A DNA stretch of 64,000 nucleotides from Planctomycetaceae bacterium (GCA_040255465.1 JBDZVA010000003.1:621174-685173); one strand, 5' to 3'. Positions 35,112 through 48,078 are shown, numbered from the stretch's first letter. Translations and numbers: made by a program. The notes: generated by a model not told the origin, from the sequence alone.

Positions 35112-35160
35112 GTCAGGCTCCATTCCGGACATCAGGGTGCAATTCCCGTGCCGACTGAGG

Positions 35161-37413
35161 CTAAAGAGCGCGAAGTCCACCCAGAATAATGAGTACCACC
35201 ATGCCCGTACCGACGAGCATTGCCAGCACCCCGACCACGATCGCCGCGAGCCGCTGCCAGCGCGGCGCCGGAGTTGTGCGGAACTTGTCCAGCCGGTTGC
35301 GCTCGACGAGGTGGGCGTACTCGGCAGCCCGCTCGTGCTTCATTTCCTCCTCGGGCACCCGCCCGGTGAAGATGACGTCGTCGACGGGGAATTTCTCCAG
35401 CCGCAGGTGGGCGTTGAAGAAGTGGATGGTGAAGATGAAGCCGACCGCGAGCAGCGCTTCGTAGCCGTGGACGACCATGGCGATGTTGAAGACCCAGCCC
35501 GGCAGCCAGTTGGCGACGAGTTCGGGGAACCAGAGCAACAGGCCTGAGCCACCGATGATGAACGTGCCGATGATCTCGGCCCAGTAGTCAAATTTCTCCC
35601 AGTAGGTCCAGCGACCGAAGGACGGCTTGCCGCGGCCGGTGAAGAACCAGCGCCACATGCCAAAGCAGTCTTTGACGTCCTTCCAGCGCGGGAAGAGCGA
35701 GTGCGGGCCGAAGAGCCAGCCGAGCACCGTCCTGGTCGGCCCCAGCGGGGTCGAGCGGGCCTGCTCGGCAACTTCCCGCCCGGCGCGAATCGTTCCGATG
35801 ACGTGGAGGACGAAGTTGAACATCAACATGATGGCGAAGAACCGGTGCCAGTTGCCGGCGGCATCCACGCCGCCAAAGACATCCGCAATCGTGAGCGCCC
35901 AGGGGCGATCGGAGAAGAACAGCGGAATACCGGTGAAGGTCAGGCCAAAGAAGCTGATGATGACCAGGATGTGATTGACGCGGTTGATGCGCGTGAAGCG
36001 GCGAATCGCCACCCCACCGCGATGGTCCGGTCGCGGGCCGTTGCGCTTGCGCTCGATGGACATCCGGATAAACCACATGATCGAGTGGAGACCGAAGAAC
36101 CCGAACGCGGCGGAAATGACGATGAGGAAGTAGAGCCAGACGCCGTGCAGCAGCGGATAGCGGGCGCCGTCTCGATAGTCCGCGTGCGGATCGAAGAGAG
36201 CGAAACTGGGCGTCGCATTCTCGTGGCACTTGGCGCAGACCTGGACGCGATGTTCGCCGTGCAGGGTCGAGTCCGGATCGCTGATGGGCCGGATGTCGTG
36301 TGCCCCGTGGCAGTCGCTGCAGCGTGCGGCTCGCATGGAGCCCAGCCTGGTCACCTGGCCGTGGTAGCTGGCGCGATAGGTTTCGTAGAACGTGGCTCGC
36401 CGGGTGCCCGACATCGCCGGATCGTCGTGGCACTCGCCGCACTCATTGACGATGTCGAGCATGAACGACGGTACATTGGTGCGCGTAATGCCGTGCGCGG
36501 TGTGGCAGTCGGTGCAGACCGGCGCCTTGTGCGTTTTCTGATCGCCATTGGCGAGCACTTGCGCATGCACGCTTTTGGCGTACGTTTCGTTGATCCCGAC
36601 ATGGCAGCGGCCACATGTCGTCGGCACATTGACGCGATTGACCAGCGCGCGTTCGTCGGCGGCGGGATGAATCTCGTGCGCGCCGTGGCAATCGGCACAT
36701 GTGGCGGCGACAACCAGGCCGCCTCGTGTGACCAGTTGTCCGTGAACGCTGTCAAGATAGGCCCCGACCAGCGCTTCGCCGCCCCCCTCGACCGAGGGGT
36801 TTGTGGCATGCTGCTTGTGGCAGCCGGCGCAGGTCGCGACGATGTTGATCGGATAGGTCTTTGAATTGCGATCGCGTGGTGGGAGGATGTCGTGTCCGCC
36901 GTGACAGGTGGCGCACCGTGGCGCCGGCCCGTTTCCGACGCCGGGTTTTTCGGCGTGCACGCCCCGCACGAACGCCGCGCCCTCCGAAGTGTGACACCCA
37001 GAGGTCGTACAGGAAGCGGGCTGAAGCGTCTGGCCATGGGGTAACGCGGCAGCATCCACATGGCACTGCACGCACGAAAGAGTTGAGTGTTCGGGGAAAG
37101 GCATCTGTTCGGCTGAAAGGAAGAGCCCCGGCCGGGTCGGAGGCTCGTCCGGTCCCGGCAGGTTTTCGCGATCGGCCTGTCCGATCATCGACCGTCGCTC
37201 GAACGGATCGAGTGTGGCGATGTGGGCCTGCCCGTGGCAGTTCAGGCAGCGGCGGTTGTCGGCCGGCGTCGGGGCCGGTTGCGCACCAACGGATCCAACG
37301 GCCCACATCCAGGCGCTCAACCCAACCAGAAACACAATGGCGCGGGAAACCACACGAGACTTCGACCGCTCAGCGCGGCAGCGCTTTTCGATCTTGTTTC
37401 TCAACACCTTCAC
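35161..37413 (-). CDS. Fusion: periplasmic 11-haem c-type cytochrome + multi-TM b-type cytochrome domain (CbcL-like architecture)
   Basis: 750 aa with a GTG start and signal peptide. 10 CxxCH plus CTTSGCH in the first ~400 aa. Then come 5-6 hydrophobic helices with conserved His (LHSIMWFI, VNHILVIISFFG, NWHRFFAIMLMFNFVLHVIG, MVVHGYEALL, IHFFNAHL), resembling FdnI/HydC-type cytochrome b. Confidence 0.8.
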   Translation of the reverse strand: MKVLRNKIEKRCRAERSKSRVVSRAIVFLVGLSAWMWAVGSVGAQPAPTPADNRRCLNCHGQAHIATLDPFERRSMIGQADRENLPGPDEPPTRPGLFLSAEQMPFPEHSTLSCVQCHVDAAALPHGQTLQPASCTTSGCHTSEGAAFVRGVHAEKPGVGNGPAPRCATCHGGHDILPPRDRNSKTYPINIVATCAGCHKQHATNPSVEGGGEALVGAYLDSVHGQLVTRGGLVVAATCADCHGAHEIHPAADERALVNRVNVPTTCGRCHVGINETYAKSVHAQVLANGDQKTHKAPVCTDCHTAHGITRTNVPSFMLDIVNECGECHDDPAMSGTRRATFYETYRASYHGQVTRLGSMRAARCSDCHGAHDIRPISDPDSTLHGEHRVQVCAKCHENATPSFALFDPHADYRDGARYPLLHGVWLYFLIVISAAFGFFGLHSIMWFIRMSIERKRNGPRPDHRGGVAIRRFTRINRVNHILVIISFFGLTFTGIPLFFSDRPWALTIADVFGGVDAAGNWHRFFAIMLMFNFVLHVIGTIRAGREVAEQARSTPLGPTRTVLGWLFGPHSLFPRWKDVKDCFGMWRWFFTGRGKPSFGRWTYWEKFDYWAEIIGTFIIGGSGLLLWFPELVANWLPGWVFNIAMVVHGYEALLAVGFIFTIHFFNAHLRLEKFPVDDVIFTGRVPEEEMKHERAAEYAHLVERNRLDKFRTTPAPRWQRLAAIVVGVLAMLVGTGMVVLIILGGLRAL

Positions 37414-37425
37414 AATGCACCCGCC

Positions 37426-39084
37426 TCACGACCCGTGCTCCCGGTCGAGGAAAGAAGACTTGTAGTACACGAGTAACCCCGAGAAGATCAGCAGCAACGC
37501 GACCGCAGCCAAACCGACAACGGTCTGCTCGCGCTGCTGTCGCCGCAACCGCTCAATCAGTTCGTGCGTGGCCTGAATCCGATCCACGCCATCACGAATC
37601 TCGGTTGCAAAGTTATTGATCTCCCGCATATTGAAGCTGTGAAAGACCTGCCGCAGGCGTGAATTGACTTCCGCCGCGTTGTGCTGCGCCTGCTCGAGGG
37701 AGAGATTGCGATACCCCCACTCAGAGAGGTCGGTGCTCAGCTCGGTGGAGAGGTCGACCTGCTCTTCCGTCTTGATGAGGATGTCCTTGATCCGCTTGAC
37801 AGACTCCATGGTCGCGGCCCGGTGGCAGGGCGAGCAGCGACCGCCCTCCGATCGCGATCGGGTGTCGATAATGTCCGGCGAAGGTTGGGTGATCTTGTGA
37901 CTGCCCTGGCCGTGGCAATAAAGACAGGTCGGGTCGCCGAAGTCACCGTGCGGGCTGCCCAGGTGCTTTTCCTTGATGTCGGCGTGGCACTTGCCGCAGA
38001 AGTAAGATACGGCTCGACCTCGCGTCTCGCTCACAAACTCGCGATCGTTGAGGTAAGTCACCAGGAAGTCGGTTTGGCGCTCGAGATGCGCCGCTCGCTT
38101 GAATGCGTCGTCCGATTCGAACTGGTCGCGCCGCAGCATCGCGTTGCCGCCGTGGCAACCGTCACAGCCGACGTTGGCGGCGAAGTGCACGCTGTGCTTC
38201 CACTCGAGTTCGACGATCTCACTTGAACGCCCGGAGAGATTCATGTGGCACTGGACGCAGTTGTTCCTGGCGTATGGATCCTCGCCATAGCCTTCAGCCT
38301 GCTCGGGCGTCGCACCCGGTTCAGCCGGCGGACTGGCGTTTGCTCTCGTTGTCTGCACGACGATGGCGGTCAACCCCACCAGCAGCCACAGGCCGTGGTG
38401 TTTCATAGCGCCGCTCAGTGGTTTGGGAGCGGTCCCGGATGGATCCTGGGAGGGCGTCGGTGCGCCGCCGTTCTCGCGATAGAGAACCTTGCGGATCGCG
38501 CGCCGCTCGTGCGCCACGAGTACGTAGAAGACCAGAATCGCGATCCCCGTGAAGATGAAGAACATCGGATGATGCGCGAAGTATTCGCTGATCGGCGCGA
38601 GACGCTCGCCCTCGGCGGTCATCGTCTCGGGCCAGCCGCCCCAGAAGGTAAAGACGATCGCCAACGCGGCGACCAGTGTGACCGCGATGCGGTAGAACCA
38701 CGTCGGCCTGGTGCGGGCCCGCAGCCCTCGATACCAGAATGGAAGCAGCACGATCACGATGATCACGGGCCCCTGGCTCAACACGCCCCATGTCTTGCCG
38801 CTCAGGCCCAGCAGCGTGGTGGGCCACACACGCAAGTACTGGTATACCGCCAGGAAGTACCATTCAGGCTTGATCCCGACTGGCGTTGAGCCGTGCGGGT
38901 TGGCCGGCTGCTCCTCATGCGCCAGGCCGTGCAGCCCGAGCATGTCCAGCAGAACCGGCAGCGTGACCAGGAACATGATGATCGCCAGGCAGATGAGCAC
39001 TGACACGGTCATCTTGATGATCTCATTGGGCCAGAACGGCTCCAACTGATCCGGCTCGTATTGCTCGCGGTAGTCGACGCCCAT
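37426..39084 (-). CDS. Fusion: cytochrome b C-terminal / subunit IV-like domain + pentahaem c-type cytochrome
   Basis: Starts MGVDYREQYEPDQLEPFWPNEI...KPEWYFLAVYQYLR (PEWY quinol-site motif), with 3-4 TM helices. Then CVQCH, CDGCH, CGKCH, CLYCH, CSPCH and a C-terminal TM. The upstream 253 codons of track ORF 37426..39843 overlap cytochrome b out of frame and are rejected. Confidence 0.8.
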   Translation of the reverse strand: MGVDYREQYEPDQLEPFWPNEIIKMTVSVLICLAIIMFLVTLPVLLDMLGLHGLAHEEQPANPHGSTPVGIKPEWYFLAVYQYLRVWPTTLLGLSGKTWGVLSQGPVIIVIVLLPFWYRGLRARTRPTWFYRIAVTLVAALAIVFTFWGGWPETMTAEGERLAPISEYFAHHPMFFIFTGIAILVFYVLVAHERRAIRKVLYRENGGAPTPSQDPSGTAPKPLSGAMKHHGLWLLVGLTAIVVQTTRANASPPAEPGATPEQAEGYGEDPYARNNCVQCHMNLSGRSSEIVELEWKHSVHFAANVGCDGCHGGNAMLRRDQFESDDAFKRAAHLERQTDFLVTYLNDREFVSETRGRAVSYFCGKCHADIKEKHLGSPHGDFGDPTCLYCHGQGSHKITQPSPDIIDTRSRSEGGRCSPCHRAATMESVKRIKDILIKTEEQVDLSTELSTDLSEWGYRNLSLEQAQHNAAEVNSRLRQVFHSFNMREINNFATEIRDGVDRIQATHELIERLRRQQREQTVVGLAAVALLLIFSGLLVYYKSSFLDREHGS

Positions 39085-39128
39085 CGGCGTGTCCTTCCCT
39101 TGGCCGCCGAGTGTTCGGCGGTGGCCTC

Positions 39129-39800
39129 TTACAGAGGCTTTGAAATACCCGTCCGGCGGATCATGACAAAGTGCAGTCCCATGAACGAACTCATGATCGC
39201 CGGCAGAATCCAGATGTGCAACGAGAAGAAGAACCCCAACGTCTCGCCGCTGATTGCTTTGCCCCGCCGCACCCACTCCACGATGTCCTGGCCGAAGTAT
39301 GGAACCGCGCTGGGAATCTCCGTTCCGACTTTGGCGCCCCAGTAGCTCAGTTGGGTCCAGGGCAGGAGGTAGCCGGTGAAGGCCATCATCGTCGTGAGCA
39401 GGAGCAGAAACACGCCGCTGACCCAGTGCAGTTCGCGCGGCGTCCGGTAGATCTTGTAGTAGGCGATGCGGGCCATGTGCATGAGCACGAGGGTGATCAT
39501 CAGGTTCGCCGCGACGGCGTGGATGCGCTGCACGAGCCAGCCCATGGTCACGTTTGACTTGATAAACGTCACGCTGTCCCAGGCAGCGTCCGGGTGCGGC
39601 TTGTAGTACATGAGCAGCAGCATGCCGGTGAAGACCTGCACAAGGAAGGTAAAGAACGCCAGTCCGCCGAAGCAGCCCGCCCACGACAAGGTGCGCGGCA
39701 CCCACTTTTTGGTGACGTTCTTTTCCAACTCCGGCGTCACGTCGAAGCGTTCGTCGATCCAGCCGTAGATATAGCGAATCACCCGCATGTCCCGCCTCAC
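39129..39800 (-). CDS. Cytochrome b (b6-type, N-terminal four-helix domain)
   Basis: 223 aa. Haem ligand pairs RIHAVAANLMITLVLMH (H-x13-H) and LHIWILPAIMSSFMGLH (H-x14-H). ATGA overlap with the Rieske stop. Confidence 0.9.
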   Translation of the reverse strand: MRRDMRVIRYIYGWIDERFDVTPELEKNVTKKWVPRTLSWAGCFGGLAFFTFLVQVFTGMLLLMYYKPHPDAAWDSVTFIKSNVTMGWLVQRIHAVAANLMITLVLMHMARIAYYKIYRTPRELHWVSGVFLLLLTTMMAFTGYLLPWTQLSYWGAKVGTEIPSAVPYFGQDIVEWVRRGKAISGETLGFFFSLHIWILPAIMSSFMGLHFVMIRRTGISKPL

Positions 39801-40255
39801 GAAATGATGAGTATTCCGTCCTTGACTTCGAAGGGCACTTCACGCAGCGGCGCGCTCACCGGCCCACTCACGACCTTGCCTTCGCCGCTGAACACGGCTC
39901 CGTGGCAGGGGCAGTGGAAGTTGCCGTGGGCGATATCCCACACGACGTTGCAGCCCAAGTGCGTACAAGACGCGTCGAAGACGCGCGGGCCGTCCTCGGC
40001 CATGACCACGATGACCTGCTGCCCCTGGAAGTCGGCGTAGTACGCCTGGCCGACGGTCAGCCGCTCAAGTTCGAGCTCAACGGGTTTGGATTCTCCGACC
40101 CGCATCGGGAGCTTCAGGAACGCCACGATCGGATACACCACGGTTCCCACGGTAATGGCCGCAGCCGAGCCGATGCACACTTGGCAGAATCGACGCCGGC
40201 CGTTGCTGACCGGTTCGTGCGAATGATCATGTTCGTGTTCATGCGCCATCGTCAT
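39797..40255 (-). CDS. Rieske 2Fe-2S protein
   Basis: CTHLGCNVVW...HCPCHGAVF cluster-binding boxes. N-terminal RRRFCQVCIGSAAAI is Tat-like/TM. TAATG overlap with the upstream stop. Confidence 0.9.
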   Translation of the reverse strand: MTMAHEHEHDHSHEPVSNGRRRFCQVCIGSAAAITVGTVVYPIVAFLKLPMRVGESKPVELELERLTVGQAYYADFQGQQVIVVMAEDGPRVFDASCTHLGCNVVWDIAHGNFHCPCHGAVFSGEGKVVSGPVSAPLREVPFEVKDGILIIS

Positions 40256-41280
40256 TACTCCGCGCTCTGGCGTTCCAACAGCAATTCGGCCGCCCGTTTG
40301 AAACTCGCCGCCGCTTCGGGCATCTTCTCGCGCTGTTCGTAGATCAATCCGAGCAGGTAGTGCGCCCGGGGCTGAGATGGATCCCGATCGAGCACGTCAC
40401 GTACGAGCCGCTCGGCTTCCGTCAGTTCATCGCCGCCGCGCACGGCCTGCACGTAGGCGACGCCAAGTGTGGCTTCCACCATGTTGGGGTTGCTTGCCAG
40501 CACGGCACGGAACTGCTTTTCCGCGTCCGCGATGCGATGGCGTTTGAGATTGAGCCGGCCCAGACCGAGGCGAGCTTCAATGCTGTCTGGCCAGAGCGTC
40601 AGCGCCTCGTGGTACTTTTCATCGGCCATCTCGTCGAGGCCGCGTCGCCCCAGTTGGCGCGCCAGCTGGGTGATGCGATTGGCGCGAATCTGCTCTTCGG
40701 TCAACGAGCTCTCGTTGGACGGATGGAGCGATTCGTCAAATCGTTCCGGACTCAGCCGCCCGAGCCCGACGAGCAGCGCATCGGTGAGGACCTCGTCGAA
40801 GCGCGGCATCAGTCCCGCCATGCTGTAGATGATCTTGCCGTCCTTGCCCACGACCACGACCGTGGGCATGACGCTCACGCGGTACGCCTCGAACGCCTTG
40901 CGATCCGGGTCGTGCAGGATCAGTCCCGCGAGCCCCAGCGACTCAGCCTGTGTTTTCAGATCCAGTCGCGATGCATTCTGCGCGACGATGAGAATTGGCG
41001 TAATGGTGTCGCCCGCCAGCCGGGGGTCGTTGAGTACGCGATTGATTTCAGCGCAGCCCTGGCGCGTCGGCTGGTGGTAGAGTTCGCCGAAGATCAGCAC
41101 CGAGGGCCGATCCTTGACTCGAGCGGAATCAAAGGCGTTGCCATCCAGATCGGAGAGCGCCAGCACTGGCGCTTGTGAGCCGCGCGGCGGAATGGCGCCG
41201 AGCGAGTCCGACGCCACACCCATACTCGCCATCAGAACGGCACAGCCAACAACGCGTGACGCGGTCAGGCGGAGTCTCAT
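40255..41280 (-). CDS. Periplasmic thioredoxin-fold (degenerate active site) + TPR protein
   Basis: 341 aa from ATG 41280 (signal peptide MRLRLTASRVVGCAVLMASMGVASD). The TlpA/redoxin-like region has only a single Cys at the active-site position (LIFGELYHQPTRQGC). C-terminal TPRs (AHYLLGLIYEQREKMPEAAASFKRAAEL). ATGA overlap with the upstream cytochrome. Confidence 0.7.
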   Translation of the reverse strand: MRLRLTASRVVGCAVLMASMGVASDSLGAIPPRGSQAPVLALSDLDGNAFDSARVKDRPSVLIFGELYHQPTRQGCAEINRVLNDPRLAGDTITPILIVAQNASRLDLKTQAESLGLAGLILHDPDRKAFEAYRVSVMPTVVVVGKDGKIIYSMAGLMPRFDEVLTDALLVGLGRLSPERFDESLHPSNESSLTEEQIRANRITQLARQLGRRGLDEMADEKYHEALTLWPDSIEARLGLGRLNLKRHRIADAEKQFRAVLASNPNMVEATLGVAYVQAVRGGDELTEAERLVRDVLDRDPSQPRAHYLLGLIYEQREKMPEAAASFKRAAELLLERQSAE

Positions 41281-42695
41281 GGACCGCCTCCCTTCGACGG
41301 ATTCGCTTCCGATGGACTCTGCAATTCGCCGCGGGCGTAGGATCGCTCCACATGGCACCCCGGCGCGCAACGCCCGCCATCGGGCAGTGCTTCAAAGTTG
41401 ATCTCCAGCATCCATCCGCTCGATCCAAACGGCACGGCTTCGCGGATGTGGAACGGCCGCTTGGATGCATGCACTTCGTGGCAAGCCCGGCAGGTGCGCC
41501 CCTTTTCCTGATCCACGTGCAGGTTGTGGAGATTGGACCCGCCATCGCGGAATCGAGTGACGCCAACGCCCGACTTGCTCGTCACCATCTCGGGCAGATG
41601 GCAGGTGAAGCACAACGCGTAGCGATTGATCTCGAACGCAGCGTAGAACTCCGGTGGATACGGCTTCACAAGCAGATTTGCATTCGCACTCTCGTGCGGC
41701 TGATGGCAGGATGAACACGATCCCGCCCGGATCGGACCATGGTGGTCCGGCGAGTCGTGCAGCAGCAGCGCCATATTGGTCAGGGTCCGACCGCTGTCGG
41801 TCCTGATGGACTTGTCGTGGCACGACAGGCAGGTATCAGGCTCAGGCTTCTTCTGAAGATTCGGCAGCATCGAGGAGTGCGGCGAGTGGCATCCGGTGCA
41901 ACCGTTGGCCTGGTGAACGGCGCCGTGTACGACCGCCGCCGAACTGATAAGGTCCATCAGTTTTTCATGGCAGGTGGCGCAGAGTTCATCGGTCGGAGCG
42001 CGAAGCATGAACTGGTTCGGAGAAGCGTGCGGATTGTGACACGTCGTGCAACCCTGCTGCATCGCCTCGTGGACGTGCAGGCCCATGCCGCTTTGCTCGA
42101 CCTCCGCATGGCAGTCCGCACACAGTTCGTTCGTGTCCTTCACCAGCAGGTTCGGCTTCCACGACGAGTGCGGCTCATGACAGAGAATGCACGCTCCAGC
42201 GGCGACCGGGCCGTGCACGTGCTCGTCAGGTTTCTCTTCGTGCATATGGCAACTCAGACACAACCCCTTGGTGGGGTCGGCGACGAGCATCATGCGGTAC
42301 TCTGAGCCGTGCGGATCGTGACAACCCGTGCACTGGCCGTTGGCCACGGGTCCGTGCACAACGGTGCGGTGTTCCATCAGGTGGCAGGTGGAGCAAAGTT
42401 CGTCCTGCTTGATGGTCTTGAATCGATGGTCGCGTGGCTCTTCGTACTGGTGGCAGGCTTCGCACTTCTGCTGCGCCACCGGGCCGTGGACAAACTTGTG
42501 GTCGCGCTTAGCGGCGTGGCAGCCCTCGGCGGCACAGGTGTCCACCGCCGTGGTCGGCTTGGGCAGGGGCGGGACATCGCCGGCCAGACTTGTTCGAGTC
42601 ATGATCAGCCCGAAAAGTCCGATAGCCGCTGCCACTGATGACAAACGGCTCCATGAATACGGGTTTTCGCGGTGTCTCGACAATGCAGCCTCCAT
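41277..42695 (-). CDS. Multihaem c-type cytochrome, 15 haem motifs (paralog A; first gene of operon)
   Basis: 472 aa with signal/TM VAAAIGLFGLIM. 13 CxxCH plus CAAEGCH and CAPGCH. Same C-terminal block as paralogs B and C (FRDGGSNLHNLHVDQEKGRTCRACH...GGRCAPGCH). Confidence 0.9.
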   Translation of the reverse strand: MEAALSRHRENPYSWSRLSSVAAAIGLFGLIMTRTSLAGDVPPLPKPTTAVDTCAAEGCHAAKRDHKFVHGPVAQQKCEACHQYEEPRDHRFKTIKQDELCSTCHLMEHRTVVHGPVANGQCTGCHDPHGSEYRMMLVADPTKGLCLSCHMHEEKPDEHVHGPVAAGACILCHEPHSSWKPNLLVKDTNELCADCHAEVEQSGMGLHVHEAMQQGCTTCHNPHASPNQFMLRAPTDELCATCHEKLMDLISSAAVVHGAVHQANGCTGCHSPHSSMLPNLQKKPEPDTCLSCHDKSIRTDSGRTLTNMALLLHDSPDHHGPIRAGSCSSCHQPHESANANLLVKPYPPEFYAAFEINRYALCFTCHLPEMVTSKSGVGVTRFRDGGSNLHNLHVDQEKGRTCRACHEVHASKRPFHIREAVPFGSSGWMLEINFEALPDGGRCAPGCHVERSYARGELQSPSEANPSKGGGP

Positions 42696-42712
42696 GGCAC
42701 CCGTGCTCCTTC

Positions 42713-42729
42713 ATGCACGTTTCATGCCA
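42713..42729 (-). promoter_or_regulatory. Candidate sigma54 (-24/-12) promoter for the cytochrome operon
   Basis: Minus strand reads TGGCATGAAACGTGCAT against the consensus TGGCACG-N4-TTGCW, with 2 mismatches and correct GG-N10-GC spacing. Caveat: the predicted TSS (~42703) leaves only ~8 nt of leader and lies downstream of the GAAGGAG. Confidence 0.35.
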
Positions 42730-42825
42730 TGCAAACCAAGAAGACCACCCCGCTTTCCCGTCACGAAAACCCGCATTGCAACCCGCGAAAGCGCCACCGG
42801 GACTCGGGTGCAATGGTGCTTTCCT

Positions 42826-42838
42826 GTTTCTGAGAAAC
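42826..42838. promoter_or_regulatory. Palindrome GTTTCT-g-AGAAAC, candidate activator (UAS) site
   Basis: Perfect 6-bp arms, ~80-90 bp upstream of each of the two divergent sigma54-like promoters. Confidence 0.3.
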
Positions 42839-42917
42839 GTTCGCGGACGTGGTTCCCAATTACGGAATTCCAGAGCCTGAAATCTCGCCATGGTGAAGAC
42901 CACCTCTCAGTTCTTCG

Positions 42918-42933
42918 TGGTATGGAACTTGCA
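42918..42933 (+). promoter_or_regulatory. Candidate sigma54 (-24/-12) promoter
   Basis: TGGTATGGAACTTGCA against TGGCACG-N4-TTGCA, with 2 C-to-T mismatches and exact spacing. The predicted TSS is ~42944, giving a 21-nt leader with GGAGA before ATG 42965. Confidence 0.55.
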
Positions 42934-42964
42934 CTGGCTAACACAACCAAGAACGGAGACATAC

Positions 42965-43612
42965 ATGAAACAGCCTTTGCTTGTCCTGATGTTCGCGCTT
43001 CTCATCGCCGTTCCGAATCTCGGATCGGCTGTTCCACAAGTACCGGCAGGCCACCCCGGCACCACGAACACGCCACCTGGCCATCCCAACATACCGAGCA
43101 CACCTCCGGGCCATCCCGAGACGAATCCGATGGGCCCAGAGCTGGCGCCGGCCGGCGACCCAGCCGACTACCCCGAGTACGTCAAATCGATCGAGTCCAT
43201 CGTCAACGCAGCATTCGAGGCGATCTCCGGCCCGAGGGGTCAAGAACGAGACTGGGAAAAGTACCGCCAGCTTTTCTTCAAAGATGCACGCCTGTACAGC
43301 GTTCGGGTCGTGCACACAACTTCGATCGTCGGCGGCCTGACCGTCGAGGAGTTCATCAAAGCCGAGAGCAACTACCTCAAGGGCTCTGGGTACTTCGAAA
43401 AACCGCTCAACATGAAGATCGAACAGTTCAGCAACATCGCCAGCGTGCGGAGCGTGTACGAGGTGCGGCATCGCGCTGAAGAAGAAATGCCATACCTCCG
43501 GGGAATTTACAACATCCAACTGGTCAACGCCGGTGGGCGCTGGTGGATCCTCAACATGCTCTGGCAGACTGAAGATCCCAGAAACCCCATTCCGGAAGAA
43601 TACCTGAAGTAG
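42965..43612 (+). CDS. Exported NTF2/SnoaL-like protein with N-terminal P-x-G-H-P repeats
   Basis: Signal peptide MKQPLLVLMFALLIAVPNLGSA, then AGHPGTTNTPPGHPNIPSTPPGHPETNP. The C-terminus ...RGIYNIQLVNAGGRWWILNMLWQTE is typical of NTF2-like/DUF4440-type folds. Confidence 0.55.
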   Translation: MKQPLLVLMFALLIAVPNLGSAVPQVPAGHPGTTNTPPGHPNIPSTPPGHPETNPMGPELAPAGDPADYPEYVKSIESIVNAAFEAISGPRGQERDWEKYRQLFFKDARLYSVRVVHTTSIVGGLTVEEFIKAESNYLKGSGYFEKPLNMKIEQFSNIASVRSVYEVRHRAEEEMPYLRGIYNIQLVNAGGRWWILNMLWQTEDPRNPIPEEYLK

Positions 43613-43755
43613 CGACCACGCAACAGCTTGCCCAATCCATCTCCGCCTCGCACCTCGCACCGGCCCTCCCGACTTTTGGGTGGGCTGGTCGAGTACAATT
43701 CGCCGTCCCGTCCCGCCCGGATGCTGACCGGGCCTGGTTCAACGTGCGAGATTCG

Positions 43756-45126
43756 ATGCCCAAGTCCATACTTATTGCCGAAGACGAACAGGTGCTGCGC
43801 GAGTCGCTGGCCGAACTGTTGACCCAGGAGGGCTACGAAGTCGTCGCGACCGGCGATGGCAAAGAGGCTCAGGCCATGGCTCTCGAGCGGTCCTTTGACC
43901 TTGTCATTTCGGACATTCGCATGCCCGAGATGGACGGCATCACGCTGCTGCATCACCTCGCGCGACTGGCGCCACAAACCCCCGTGATCATGCTCACGGC
44001 CTTCGGCACTGTCGACAGCGCCGTCAAGGCCATGCAGACCGGGGCGGTCGACTACCTGCTCAAGCCCGTTCAATTCGACGATCTTCTTCTTCGCATCAAC
44101 CGGGCCATCGAGCACGGCGAGATGGTCCGCAGCCATCGGCGCATGACCGACCAACTTGCCGCCGAAGGCTCGTTTCACAATCTCGTGGGCGAATCACCCG
44201 GCATGAAGCGACTTTTTGGCCTGGTTCACAAACTTGCCACGGTCAAGAGCAGCGTGCTGCTGCTGGGCGAATCAGGTACGGGCAAAGAACTCTTCGCCCG
44301 CGCCATTCATTACAACGGCATCACGCGCGACAAGCCCTTCGTCGCCGTCAACTGCGGCGCCATTCCCGAGAGCCTGATTGCGTCAGAACTCTTTGGCCAC
44401 CGCAAGGGTTCATTCACGGGCGCGACGGCGGACCGGGCCGGCTACTTCGAGGCGGCCAACGGAGGCACGCTGTTTCTGGATGAAATCTCCACCCTGCCGC
44501 TCGCCACGCAAAGCATGCTGCTGCGGGTGCTCGAAGAGCGCGTCGTGGTTCCCGTCGGAGACACGAAGCCCCGGGCCGTTGATGTTCGCATCATCGCCGC
44601 GACCAATCGCGATCTGCGCACCATGGTCGCCGCGGGCGAGTTTCGGGAAGACGTGATGTATCGCCTCGACGTGGTGAAACTGGAACTCCCGCCGCTGCGC
44701 CATCGGCGCGAAGACATCCCGCTGCTCGTACACCATTTTCTGCAGAAGTACGCCACGCAGATGAGCAAGCGCGTGCCAGGCGTCACCAACGGCGCGATGC
44801 GGGCCCTGCTCAACCATGACTGGCCGGGCAACATCCGCGAACTCGAAAACGTGATTGAACGCGCCGTCATCTTCACCGATGGCGATGAACTCGGCGTGGA
44901 CGATCTCCCGTTCCAGAGTGTGGAAGATGACGAACCGGGCGAAGAGCTGCGCGAGGCGCTCCGTCAGTTCGAACGCCAGCACATTCTCTACTGCCTTCGG
45001 CGGCACGACTTCGACAAGAACAAGACGGCCGAGCAACTCGGCATCGGCCTGTCGAGCCTCTATCGAAAGATGGATGAACTCGGCATCGCCAAGCAGCCCG
45101 ACGAGTCGCCGGACAAAGCGACCTAA
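43756..45126 (+). CDS. Sigma54-dependent two-component response regulator (NtrC family)
   Basis: REC domain (ILIAEDE...[14 protein letters not shown]...LKP). AAA+ domain with Walker A GESGTGKE and the sigma54-contact motif GSFTGA (GAFTGA variant). C-terminal HTH ([21 protein letters not shown]). Confidence 0.9.
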
Positions 45127-45530
45127 AACAGCAACTTGAACAGGTAATCCAGCCGGCCGCGCAGCACAATGCGTTTGCCCGACTCGCGCATGACCTTGCG
45201 AATCTGCGCGCGGTAGGTTGGGTGATAGCAGTGGGTCGGGCAGTGCTTGCACGCGGGCTTTGGATTGAAGGGGCAGGTGGTCCGCTTGACCCACGCGTGG
45301 GCGAGCAGTTTTGAGCATTCGGGACAGAGGATCAGCGGCCGGCGCGTCACTCCGGCAAGCCCCTCCGCCACGAACTCGGACTTGTCGCTTTCTCGATTTT
45401 GGTGATTTGCCTTGCAGTACATCTCAATAAAGAGACCCAGCATGCGCAGGTCTTTGCGGAGTTTCCGGTCCTTCAGAACCTCTGACGCCAGTACGGGCAG
45501 CCGAAATGAGCGATTTGCCGTCGAGATCAT
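45123..45530 (-). CDS. YgbA_NO family protein (nitrous oxide-stimulated promoter family)
   Basis: LILCPECSKLLAHAWVKRTTCPFNPKPACKHCPTHCYHPTYRAQIRKVMRESGKRIV closely parallels the E. coli YgbA motif KPACKQCPVHCYQP. Convergent with the response regulator, overlapping it by 4 nt. The start (45530 or the downstream ATG encoding MLGLFIEMYC) is uncertain. Confidence 0.7.
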   Translation of the reverse strand: MISTANRSFRLPVLASEVLKDRKLRKDLRMLGLFIEMYCKANHQNRESDKSEFVAEGLAGVTRRPLILCPECSKLLAHAWVKRTTCPFNPKPACKHCPTHCYHPTYRAQIRKVMRESGKRIVLRGRLDYLFKLLF

Positions 45531-45604
45531 GCCGTTCCTCGGAAATCGCGTTTGCAAATCCCGTGCCGCCCTCCTCTGGCGCGCCGTTTGTAGGGCATTA
45601 CCCG

Positions 45605-46720
45605 ATGCTCCGCAAGCGACTCCTTCTTGGACTTGGCTCGATGATCGTCCTGTTCGCCGTTCTGGCAATCGGGGCGGTCCTGCTGCTCGACCGCATCGTC
45701 GGCGAAATCGACGAGATCAAGGCCACGAGCACTACCTATATCGCGCACCTGCATGATCTGGGCGGTCGCATCAGCGCGGTCGAGAGCGCCCTCTATGCGT
45801 CCGACTCCGACTCCCCGAGCCAGGAGGAACTCAAGCGGCTGGCGGGCGACCTGCGCTCATCTCTCGATCCGCTTCAAGCCGACGCACTGAACTGGCCTGA
45901 AGGATCCGAGGCTCCGGCGATCCTCACCCGTATTCTTGCCTCGCTGCCCGGCTTTGCCGATCGGATTGATGCGCTGGCGCTCACCAACCTGCCCGGCACG
46001 TACTACACCGCGCGGGATGAAGTGCTCCGCAGCCACATCGCCCTGCAGACGGACGTACTCGATCTCACCCGGCTCGCCCGCGCCTTCGCCTCCGACAGCC
46101 AGACCGCAATGACCAATCGCTTCCGCTGGGTCGTCCTCGGGGTGGCGATCGCCTCGATCCTCGTGGTCAACATCTCGATCCTCGTGGTGCTGCGCACGGT
46201 CGGCCTCGTGCTGCGTCCGATGGAGGAGATCGTGGACGCCACCACGGTGTGGAGCGGTGAGCGGTTCGATCATCGCATTGCCCTCGATCAGCCTGACGAG
46301 TTCGGGCAATTGGCCCGGGCACTCAACCAGATGGCCGACCGACTGGAAGTGAACGAAACGCGAAAGATCGAGACGCTCCAGCAGACGGCGAGGATGCTCA
46401 ATCATGAACTCAACAACGCCCTGGCGATTATCAGCCTGCAGGTGCAACTGCTCGATCGGTCCAGGAACGCCTCGCCGGAACTCAAAGATCGACTCGATCG
46501 CATCCGCGCGTGCCTGGCCCGCATGACCAACACGGTCGATTCGCTCAAGCAGGTTCGGCGCATTGTGCTGACGGATTACGTGCCGGGTGAGAAGATGCTC
46601 GATCTGCCGCGCTCAATCAGCGAAGCAGCGGACAGCGACGAGGGCCCGCGCGAGGCGGAGATTGCCGTAGTCTCCACACTCAGTTCCACCCCAACTCGAC
46701 AGGGCTCCGAGCACTCGTGA
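45605..46720 (+). CDS. Membrane sensor with HAMP and DHp (HisKA-like) domains but no ATPase domain
   Basis: TM MLRKRLLLGLGSMIVLFAVLAIGAVLLL, a periplasmic ~170-aa region, a second TM, HAMP (LRPMEEIVDATTVWSGERFDHRIALDQPDEFGQLARALNQMADRL), then LNHELNNALAIISLQVQLL. It ends without N/G1/G2 boxes. GTGA overlap with the next gene. Confidence 0.7.
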   Translation: MLRKRLLLGLGSMIVLFAVLAIGAVLLLDRIVGEIDEIKATSTTYIAHLHDLGGRISAVESALYASDSDSPSQEELKRLAGDLRSSLDPLQADALNWPEGSEAPAILTRILASLPGFADRIDALALTNLPGTYYTARDEVLRSHIALQTDVLDLTRLARAFASDSQTAMTNRFRWVVLGVAIASILVVNISILVVLRTVGLVLRPMEEIVDATTVWSGERFDHRIALDQPDEFGQLARALNQMADRLEVNETRKIETLQQTARMLNHELNNALAIISLQVQLLDRSRNASPELKDRLDRIRACLARMTNTVDSLKQVRRIVLTDYVPGEKMLDLPRSISEAADSDEGPREAEIAVVSTLSSTPTRQGSEHS

Positions 46721-48078
46721 ACAGCACGCCTTCGACTGCCAACCACCGTCTCCTGCTCAGCCAGATTCGCTGGCTGGTGGCGCTGCGCTGGGGCGCTGGA
46801 TTCGCCGTCGCGCTGGCGGCGCTTATCGACTGGCTCTGGCTTGAGTGGTTCCCCAACGCCACGGCGGCGCTAATGCTGGGCGTCACGATTCTGGGGTTCA
46901 ATGCCATGGTCGCCGCGTGGACCCGGCGCAGCATTCCGCTCATGCGGCATCCGCGCCGGCTGCTGCTGGCGGTGTGGATCCAGATCGGCGTCGATCTCAC
47001 GCTGTTGGCCATCCTCACCGTCTGGACCGGCGGGCTCACAAGCATCATCAGCGGCTTTTTTGTGTTTCACATGGTCTTTGCGAGTCTGCTGCTCGGCCAG
47101 ACGATGGCCTACCTCGCCGCCACCTACGCCGTGTGCGTCTTCTTCACTCTGCTGTGCAGCCTCGGCGATTCGCCGACGACGCGGGCCGACACGCTCGCCG
47201 CGACGGGTTTTATCCTCACACTCTACATCACGGTGTTTATCGCCAACCACCTCACCACGCGCCTGCGCCGCAATGAACAACGCCTCTACGAGCACTCGCG
47301 GCGGATACTGGACATGTCGCACCGCCTGCGCGATCAGCAGCAGGCGATGGTGCAGCATGAAAAGATGATCGGCCTGGGTCAGCTCGCTGCCGGGCTCGCG
47401 CACGAAATCGCCAATCCGCTCGCCTCCATGGACAGCGTTCTCCAACTCATGATGCGCCGACCCGATCGGCCAGCAGGCAACGCACTGCGGACGCTGCGGG
47501 AACAGATTGAGCGCATCAGCAACATCATCCGCCAGATGACTGCATTTGCGCGTCCTGACGATCCGACCGGACCGCCGGTTCCCATCGGCCAGCTCATCGA
47601 GCGCGTGACAAGAATCGTCCAGCTCGACACTCGAGCCAAGCGCCTGCAACTGGTTGAGGATCTTGATCCTCACCTGGTCAACGATTGGGCGGTGCCTTCG
47701 GCCACTCAGCAGGTGCTGGTCAATCTCGCGATCAATGCGCTCGACGCCATGGCGGACGCAGCCGCCCCGTGCCTGACGATCCGACTGATCCAGCGTCATG
47801 ACAAGAACGTGATTGAGGTTCAGGACAACGGAACGGGCATACCGCCGCAGAACCTCAATCGCATCTTCGAGCCCTTCTTCACCACCAAGCCTGTTGGCAA
47901 GGGAACCGGCCTGGGACTGTCGATCTCCTACCGCCTCGTCGAAAAGCACGGCGGCACGATGCGCGTGCAGAGCACGCCGGGTCAGGGGACGACCTTCACC
48001 ATGTCCTTCCCCTCGGCGCCCGAGGCTAAGCGGCCCTCGACCCCGTCAACTTCTTCGGCCGAGGTCATTCGCGTTTGA
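46717..48078 (+). CDS. Polytopic membrane histidine kinase
   Basis: ~6 TM helices, H-box [17 protein letters not shown]-box [13 protein letters not shown]-boxes QDNGTGIP and [11 protein letters not shown]. Confidence 0.85.

Follow-up and report, generated by a model that had tools for sequence, protein, structure and literature searches.

The 269-bp spacer at 42696-42964 in a 64-kb window of Planctomycetaceae DNA (GCA_040255465.1 JBDZVA010000003.1:621174-685173; the window is the whole stretch of 64,000 nucleotides, and all positions are window coordinates) separates a minus-strand cytochrome operon from a plus-strand gene for a secreted NTF2-like protein. The genome is assigned to Phycisphaerales (Planctomycetota). 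Sequence and its conservation suggest that this spacer is very probably a bidirectional sigma-54 control region, with two outward-facing -24/-12 promoter elements, P(-) and P(+), and a pair of candidate activator sites between them. An earlier interpretation made from the sequence alone, here called the sequence-only reading, had proposed divergent sigma-54 promoters, an activator region between them and a cognate enhancer-binding protein encoded next door. Phylogenetic footprinting upholds this core. The positions of all features are given in Table 1.

The two candidate promoter elements and their conservation

Candidate promoters were sought with the sigma-54 consensus TGGCACG-N4-TTGCW, allowing at most two mismatches. 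P(+) and P(-), the latter contained in TGGCATGAAACGTGCAT (the reverse complement of 42713-42729), each match 14 of the 16 consensus positions, with GG and GC intact and separated by exactly 10 bp. The distance from the -12 C to the start codon is 33 nt on the plus side (ATG 42965) and 32 nt on the minus side (TTG 42683); on either side a conserved GGAG follows the -12 C by 22-23 nt. Transcription is predicted to start near 42944 from P(+), leaving a leader of about 21 nt, and near 42703 from P(-).

The footprint alignment comprised 11 distinct orthologous spacers from Phycisphaerales, which are 37-74% identical outside two near-identical pairs; one locus, L001, is a 96%-identical relative of the window. 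P(-) reads GGCAYG-N4-GTGC and P(+) reads GGTAYG-N4-TTGC in 11/11 orthologues. The plus-strand element, TGGTATGGAACTTGCA at 42918-42933, had been described in the sequence-only reading with exact spacing and two mismatches, and it stands as described, its GG and GC being invariant in the 11 orthologues. At about 1.6 bits per column, the promoter blocks stand far above the remaining spacer (0.67). The distance between P(-) and P(+) is 203-206 bp in eight of the 11 spacers, 224 bp in two and 236 bp in one, and the extra 22 or 34 bp of the longer spacers sits between the sites called dyad A and block C4 below. Downstream of the promoters the geometry is likewise narrow. At P(-), 20-23 nt lie between the -12 C and a GGAG, and 5-6 nt between this GGAG and the start codon; at P(+), the corresponding distances are 22-24 nt (28 in L017) and, to the ATG, 5-6 nt (8 in L002).

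The pattern derived from the conserved promoters, GGYAYG-N4-KTGC, has five matches in the window versus 1.87 expected. Across 18 orthologous loci, nearly all of its matches lie upstream of the cytochrome operon, the NTF2-like gene or a third gene of the locus, ygbA; there are three extra matches, in L012, L013 and L017. The same scan found no match in 32 unrelated loci.

The minus-strand promoter had been considered the weaker of the two, on the grounds that its leader would be only about 8 nt long and would lack a GAAGGAG. The site itself is present and conserved in the 11 orthologues, and the supposed weakness drops away once the start codon of the first cytochrome gene is revised. The sequence ATGGAGGCTGC, which spans this start region, is invariant at the nucleotide level, codon third positions included, in 8/11 orthologues. 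In the remaining three, this place is taken by GGGAG or GGAGG with a GTG or TTG after it, and an overlapping frame-setting ATG is lacking. In all orthologues a GGAG follows the -12 C at the distance given above and precedes an in-frame TTG or GTG. The first cytochrome gene therefore most likely starts at TTG 42683, four codons downstream of ATG 42695, which gives a predicted P(-) leader of about 20 nt, mirroring that of P(+). The GAAGGAG relied on in the sequence-only reading is not conserved in the orthologues.

Other uses of the spacer were also considered. A sigma-70 promoter scan of 42400-43900 returned no matches, none in the spacer included. An Rfam search of 42400-46000 and 700-1800 gave nothing credible, and a structured RNA was rejected. 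Two open reading frames (ORFs) overlapping the spacer, 42711-42962 (minus) and 42638-42880 (plus), were discarded, with indels of 20-34 nt that are not multiples of three and with low conservation between the blocks.

The dyad pair, its presumed reader and distant loci

The candidate enhancer between the promoters consists of two 16-bp dyads, B and A, placed 32 bp apart as putative activator sites. The distance from the start of dyad B to the start of dyad A, about three helical turns, is exactly 32 bp in 11/11 orthologues. Measured from P(+), the dyad centres are at about -83 and -115; measured from P(-), they are at about -126 and -158. Dyad B starts 98 bp from the GG of P(+), and dyad A is 140 bp from the GG of P(-). 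The sequence-only reading had assigned the activator site to the perfect palindrome GTTTCTGAGAAAC (42826-42838). This palindrome (GTTTCTgAGAAAC) is present, but it was rejected as the conserved unit: it is perfect only in the window and L001, and with up to two mismatches it has one match in the window versus 1.0 expected. The second dyad had been missed. An inverted CATTGCA/TGCAATG pair that had been pointed out in the same region does exist (42774-42780/42809-42815; pair I4, with 17-nt arms that are 76% complementary), but it is intact only in the window and L001 and is probably incidental.

Two further conserved blocks, C1 and C4, flank the dyads. C1 may serve an architectural protein or belong to a degenerate third dyad at 42755-42769, TTCCCG-TCA-CGAAAA. 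C4 remains with P(+) when the 22- or 34-bp insertions occur, and its GGAA has become GGGG in L010 and L016, in step with the right arm of dyad A, a change that counts as one lineage event; this block may be a half-site or an architectural-protein site. Both C1 and C4 are located where proteobacterial sigma-54 promoters bind architectural proteins. Inspection of the two blocks for the IHF consensus, by eye only, revealed nothing convincing.

The presumed reader of the dyads is encoded on the plus side of the spacer. The sequence-only reading had noted a sigma-54-dependent response regulator there, and Pfam confirms a receiver (REC), sigma-54-AAA+ and helix-turn-helix (HTH_8) architecture with an intact sigma-54 contact loop, GSFTGA. 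The recognition helix of the HTH domain, which ends in [D/E]ELGI, is invariant across orthologues. The protein scores below every NCBIfam equivalog cut-off (AtoC 450 bits, cut-off 714; NtrC 415, cut-off 558.6; ZraR 396, cut-off 760), so by sequence it is classed as a generic NtrC-class response regulator. Its gene is possibly transcribed by read-through from P(+) or from a promoter of its own. The NTF2-like gene and the regulator gene are separated by 143 bp, in which there is a conserved GC-rich hairpin, GCCCTCCC...GGGTGGGC, at 43669-43712 (+), and downstream of it, ahead of the regulator gene, a conserved -10-like GTAsAAT (GTACAAT or GTAGAAT). The hairpin was not accepted as a proven terminator of the NTF2-like gene, as it has no U-tract and shows no compensatory changes and hence no covariation.

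The dyad pair also recurs outside the orthologous loci, in distant metagenomic loci that came from a search with a NapC-like cytochrome as query, made for another purpose. With its 32-bp spacing, it is found in at least nine of these loci, within the first 50-400 nt of each. L060, L069, L070 and L076 have a perfect TTCCCG-N4-CGGGAA and, 32 bp further on, a dyad with TGAGAA at its end; the same pair occurs in L062, L065, L073 and L058 and, in weaker form, in L055 and L093. A sigma-54-type site lies downstream of the dyad pair in every one of these distant loci, those of L058 and L076 being looser. In six of eight measured loci, the site is of the TGGCACG-N4-GTGCA type and follows the first dyad at 96-98 bp; in the other two the distance is 113 and 146 bp. 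The next long reading frame encodes 711-752 aa in seven distant loci, and these frames would, by position alone, be counterparts of the multihaem plus b-type cytochrome gene of the window. On the other side, in at least five loci (L055, L060, L062, L065 and L069; tblastn), the sequence just upstream of the dyads is 42-64% identical to the C-terminus of the PilS-like kinase encoded in the window.

It is conceivable, but doubtful, that the kinase, regulator, twin-dyad and sigma-54 unit is an old cassette that crosses phyla together with genes for CbcAB-like bc-type quinol:cytochrome oxidoreductases, and that it is the Planctomycetota counterpart of the Geobacter BccR redox-potential switch. If so, TTCCCG-N4-CGGGAA occurring twice at 32 bp would be a diagnostic signature, predicting low-potential respiratory modules in uncultured bacteria.

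Proposed mechanism, rival explanations and known systems

In the proposed mechanism, for which we infer the sigma-54 dependence, the dyad-binding protein, the start positions and the nature of the signal, sigma-54 RNA polymerase would wait in closed complexes at P(-) and P(+). The PilS-like kinase and the REC-AAA+-HTH regulator would sense a signal, presumably respiratory or redox, and the phosphorylated regulator would assemble on the dyads at 42821-42836 and 42853-42868. DNA looping and ATP hydrolysis would then open both promoters. P(-) would express a Rieske/cytochrome b6-like complex with multihaem cytochromes, and P(+) the NTF2-like protein that is secreted, with transcription perhaps continuing into the regulator gene.

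Several observations weigh against this mechanism or parts of it. Matches to the sigma-54 consensus occur at chance level, 14 in the window versus 13.6 +/- 3.5 in shuffles, so significance must rest on placement and conservation; the expected probability of two outward-facing matches in one 269-bp spacer is roughly 1e-3, by our own estimate from the shuffle rate. The 64-kb window contains neither an rpoN gene nor an RpoN box. P(+) departs from the consensus by a T instead of a C after GG (GGTATG). P(-) has GTGC instead of TTGC and forms a near-palindrome, GCAYG-N3-CGTGC, which makes an operator reading possible. Two other sigma-54-type sites of the locus, before ygbA and at 35139, have no recognisable dyad pair, and one regulator may not explain the whole locus. 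Finally, the degenerate dyad model, TTCYCR-N4-YGRGAA with a pair scored out of 24, was derived post hoc from the sequences it scores, and the pair statistics are optimistic: the 42821/42853 pair scores 21/24 and is the sole pair of at least 19 in 64 kb, about 0.03 pairs of at least 20 being expected. The perfect palindromes in the distant loci and the fixed 32-bp spacing are independent of this consensus. The use of sigma-54 in this genome gains indirect support from the conserved regulator with its GSFTGA loop and from the canonical site ahead of a fliN region (1339-1354). As to sigma-54 in the phylum, R. baltica has rpoN (PMC2754498), and a cross-phylum survey of sigma-54 regulons takes in Planctomycetota, Phycisphaerae included (PMC12316311).

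The abundance of two-mismatch matches in shuffled sequence and the missing sight of rpoN in the window would both be expected if the motifs were chance matches in a GC-rich spacer with no sigma-54 control at all. Such an explanation is hardly credible, as it leaves unaccounted for the conservation of the promoter blocks compared with the rest of the spacer, the exact spacing and geometry in 11 orthologues, the absence of the derived pattern from the 32 control loci and the recurrence of the module in distant loci.

Quite unlikely, too, is the operator reading, in which sigma-54 dependence is confined to P(+). The palindrome at P(-), GCACG-N3-CGTGC, would then be an operator next to the cytochrome start codon, bound by a dimeric repressor or activator, and the operon would have an unrecognised promoter elsewhere. 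This reading draws on the near 13-bp palindrome at P(-), which is perfect in L003, L015, L010 and L016 and has C as its fourth spacer base in 10/11 orthologues, and on the leader of only about 8 nt that would result from a start at ATG 42695. However, the GG is invariant on one side only, and the mirror position past GTGC is A or T, never CC. The distance from P(-) to the conserved GGAG equals that of P(+), and in at least nine distant loci TGGCACG-N4-GTGC stands in the same orientation before what are, by position, cytochrome genes, six of these loci having it at a fixed 96-98 bp from the dyads. The scan described above offers no sigma-70-like promoter in the spacer for the operon to use instead.

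A third possibility accepts both promoters as real but has the dyads bound by another enhancer-binding protein or a repressor, with the regulator encoded at 43756-45126 acting elsewhere, e.g., on the promoters of ygbA or the kinase. Such a division would fit the lack of a dyad pair at the ygbA and 35139 sites, since the locus may have more than one activator, and to our knowledge the dyad motif matches no known binding site of a characterised enhancer-binding protein. This possibility is nevertheless unlikely: all orthologues keep the synteny of regulator, kinase, dyads and promoters, distant loci have a homologous kinase gene that runs right up to the dyads, and the HTH recognition helix and the dyad cores are both invariant. 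Counted from the predicted starts, the dyads are at about -83 to -158, also a typical enhancer distance. Synteny and kinase linkage favour the local regulator as the presumed dyad binder.

Among known systems, bccR-cbcBA of Geobacter sulfurreducens would be the closest by function and the enterobacterial zraP-zraSR the closest by architecture. In the former (GSU0598/GSU0597-0593), a bc-type cytochrome operon has a sigma-54 promoter, and a divergently encoded REC/sigma-54-AAA+/HTH regulator is needed for its induction (bioRxiv 10.1101/2021.04.15.440034). Judged by layout and the published description, the likeness lies in a REC-AAA+-HTH regulator beside a divergent bc-type cytochrome operon with a sigma-54 promoter, and in the end of the P(-) operon, whose multihaem c plus PF01292-type b cytochrome looks like a fusion of CbcA and CbcB. 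The differences are that Geobacter belongs to Desulfuromonadota and the present locus to Planctomycetota, that the operon here is built on a Rieske/b6-like complex, and that the regulator gene comes second, behind an NTF2-like gene with its own sigma-54 promoter.

In zraP-zraSR, a single two-component enhancer-binding protein, ZraR, governs a divergent pair of sigma-54 promoters (PMC4987338). Both systems have a small periplasmic protein on one side and a two-component system on the other side or in the neighbourhood, and in NCBIfam the regulator has ZraR among its best matches. With 396 bits against a cut-off of 760, however, the regulator is not an equivalog of ZraR, and the cargo here is respiratory rather than an envelope-stress chaperone. 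NorR and norR-norVW provide a further parallel, with multiple enhancer sites in a divergent intergenic region driving a sigma-54 promoter (PMC2831303). The multi-site enhancer in a divergent spacer is shared, and the nitric oxide-associated YgbA_NO gene is found nearby in the present locus. NorR, in contrast, has a GAF sensor instead of a receiver domain and three GT-N7-AC sites, and only norVW is sigma-54 dependent.

The spacing of the dyads resembles that of the NtrC sites of E. coli glnAp2, which lie at -140 and -108. In both cases two dyad activator sites, separated by about three helical turns, precede a -24/-12 promoter by roughly 100-140 bp. The NtrC motif TGCACC-N5-GGTGCA differs from TTCCCG-N4-CGGGAA, and glnAp2 is unidirectional and responds to a nitrogen signal.

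This type of control region is well known and its mechanism is textbook knowledge, here in a little-studied phylum. Detailed knowledge of how cytochromes for anaerobic or extracellular electron transfer are regulated is limited to a few Proteobacteria and Desulfuromonadota. For uncultured Phycisphaerales, the present analysis provides a sequence-level model of how a Rieske/cytochrome b-multihaem operon may be regulated, together with a corrected start codon and a newly described candidate motif for an uncharacterised enhancer-binding protein family. It also hints that bc-type cytochromes may be widely under sigma-54 control, as they are in Geobacter bccR-cbcBA.

Flanking genes and other sigma-54-type sites

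Table 1. Predicted regulatory elements and genes at and around the spacer, in window coordinates
Feature	Position	Strand	Basis or remark
P(+), predicted sigma-54 -24/-12 promoter, TGGTATGGAACTTGCA	42918..42933	plus	GG 42919-42920, GC 42931-42932
P(-), predicted sigma-54 -24/-12 promoter, TGGCATGAAACGTGCA	42714..42729	minus	GG 42728-42727, GC 42716-42715; faces cytochrome operon
Dyad B, TTCCTG-TTTC-TGAGAA	42821..42836		TGAGAA invariant, preceded by TTCYYG-N4; 1.66 bits/column; holds most of the palindrome
Dyad A, TTCCCA-ATTA-CGGAAT	42853..42868		Degenerate copy of TTCCCG-N4-CGGGAA
Block C1, CACCCCG	42746..42752		About -45 to -50 from P(-); CCCCG in 11/11, 1.78 bits/column
Block C4, AGCCTGAAATC (CCGGAAATC in most orthologues)	42874..42884		About -60 to -70 from P(+)
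Shine-Dalgarno GGAGG 42693-42689, 5-nt spacer, in-frame TTG 42683-42681	42681..42693	minus	Orthologue conservation
First cytochrome gene, 472-aa multihaem	Up to 42695 (ATG)	minus	Adjoins spacer
Operon assigned to P(-)	35161..42683	minus	Pfam and NCBIfam scans; order kept in orthologous loci
Cytochrome b6-like gene	39129-39800	minus	Other frame than the 805-aa ORF
Subunit-IV-like protein fused to multihaem c, 552 aa	37426 to ~39084	minus	Orthologue comparison
Secreted NTF2-like protein, 215 aa; Shine-Dalgarno GGAG 42955-42958, ATG 42965	42955..43612	plus	GGAG and ATG invariant
Response regulator, REC/sigma-54-AAA+/HTH_8, presumed dyad reader	43744/43756-45126	plus	Pfam
PilS-like histidine kinase, presumed sensor partner	46717..48078	plus	Pfam
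Third putative promoter, CGGCACGGGATTTGCA	45553..45568	minus	24 nt before ygbA start codon
Sigma-54-type site, CGGCACGGGAATTGCA	35138-35153	minus	Directly past 750-aa gene stop, 28 nt before NapC/NirT-like gene
Canonical sigma-54 site, TGGCACGCATTTTGCG	1339-1354	minus	Best consensus match in window; AT-rich non-coding stretch

The gene order is the same in every orthologous locus retrieved, and the homologues come from metagenome-assembled genomes of Phycisphaerales, e.g., UBA5793. The operon assigned to P(-) encodes, in this order, the multihaem cytochrome, a TPR/thioredoxin-like protein, a Rieske protein, the cytochrome b6-like protein, the fusion of a subunit-IV-like protein with multihaem c, and a 750-aa cytochrome. 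The last protein combines a multihaem c with a b561-type part; its PF01292 match is marginal (31.3 bits versus a cut-off of 30.1) and is accompanied by multihaem domains. Beyond the 750-aa gene, the minus strand continues with a NapC/NirT-like cytochrome, two more paired-CXXCH cytochromes and a second TPR/AhpC protein. An 805-aa ORF at 37426-39843 (minus) was dismissed as an artefact of an open upstream frame, the orthologues having two genes there.

On the plus side, the NTF2-like gene is followed by the regulator gene, ygbA on the opposite strand, a HAMP-HisKA gene, the PilS-like histidine kinase gene and a histidine phosphatase gene. An alternative start of the NTF2-like gene at ATG 42890 (the 240-aa call P0001) was dropped in favour of 42965 after orthologue comparison. 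The NTF2-like protein has no Pfam or NCBIfam match; its homologues are 183-209 aa long, and one source labels its copy a nuclear transport factor 2 family protein. The mature N-terminus contains two or three PGHP/PPGHP repeats, which are kept in the orthologues. By analogy with ZraP, the product may be a metal- or haem-binding periplasmic accessory protein.

Two kinase-like genes, 45605-46720 and 46717-48078 (plus), form a tandem in which the stop codon of the first overlaps the start codon of the second. HAMP and HisKA domains, without an ATPase domain, are encoded by the first gene, whereas the second encodes a complete kinase of the PilS type. All orthologues keep this unusual arrangement of a split or accessory sensor.

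Further sigma-54-type sites were found in the window. The one ahead of ygbA, a YgbA_NO family gene at 45126-45530 (minus), is kept in most orthologous loci, and CGGCACGGGAATTGCA matches it at 15/16 positions. Conservation of CGGCACGGGAATTGCA as an internal promoter was not upheld: a similar site, CGGCACACGTCTTGCT, occurs only in the closest homologue, L051, and the genes abut in more distant loci. Sharing of the same enhancer by the sites at ygbA, 35139 and 1340 was likewise rejected, as position weight matrix and dyad scans gave weak single matches no better than background (31 such dyads per window).

Back-to-back with the ygbA site and 8 bp from it, TGGCGCGCCGTTTGTA at 45577-45592 (+) lies 14 nt before the HAMP-HisKA ATG at 45605. 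It includes a GGCGCGCC palindrome and reads T-GGCGCGCCG-Y-TTG-Y-A in 10/10 orthologues; in L010, L016 and L017 it has TTGCA and thereby the full GG-N10-GC. This site would be either a sigma-54 promoter for a nearly leaderless kinase mRNA or an operator.

Flagellar genes are a classic target class of sigma-54. The canonical site at 1339-1354 lies upstream of unannotated ORFs and a gene for a FliN C-terminal domain protein (549-905, minus), and it is probably a flagellar sigma-54 promoter.

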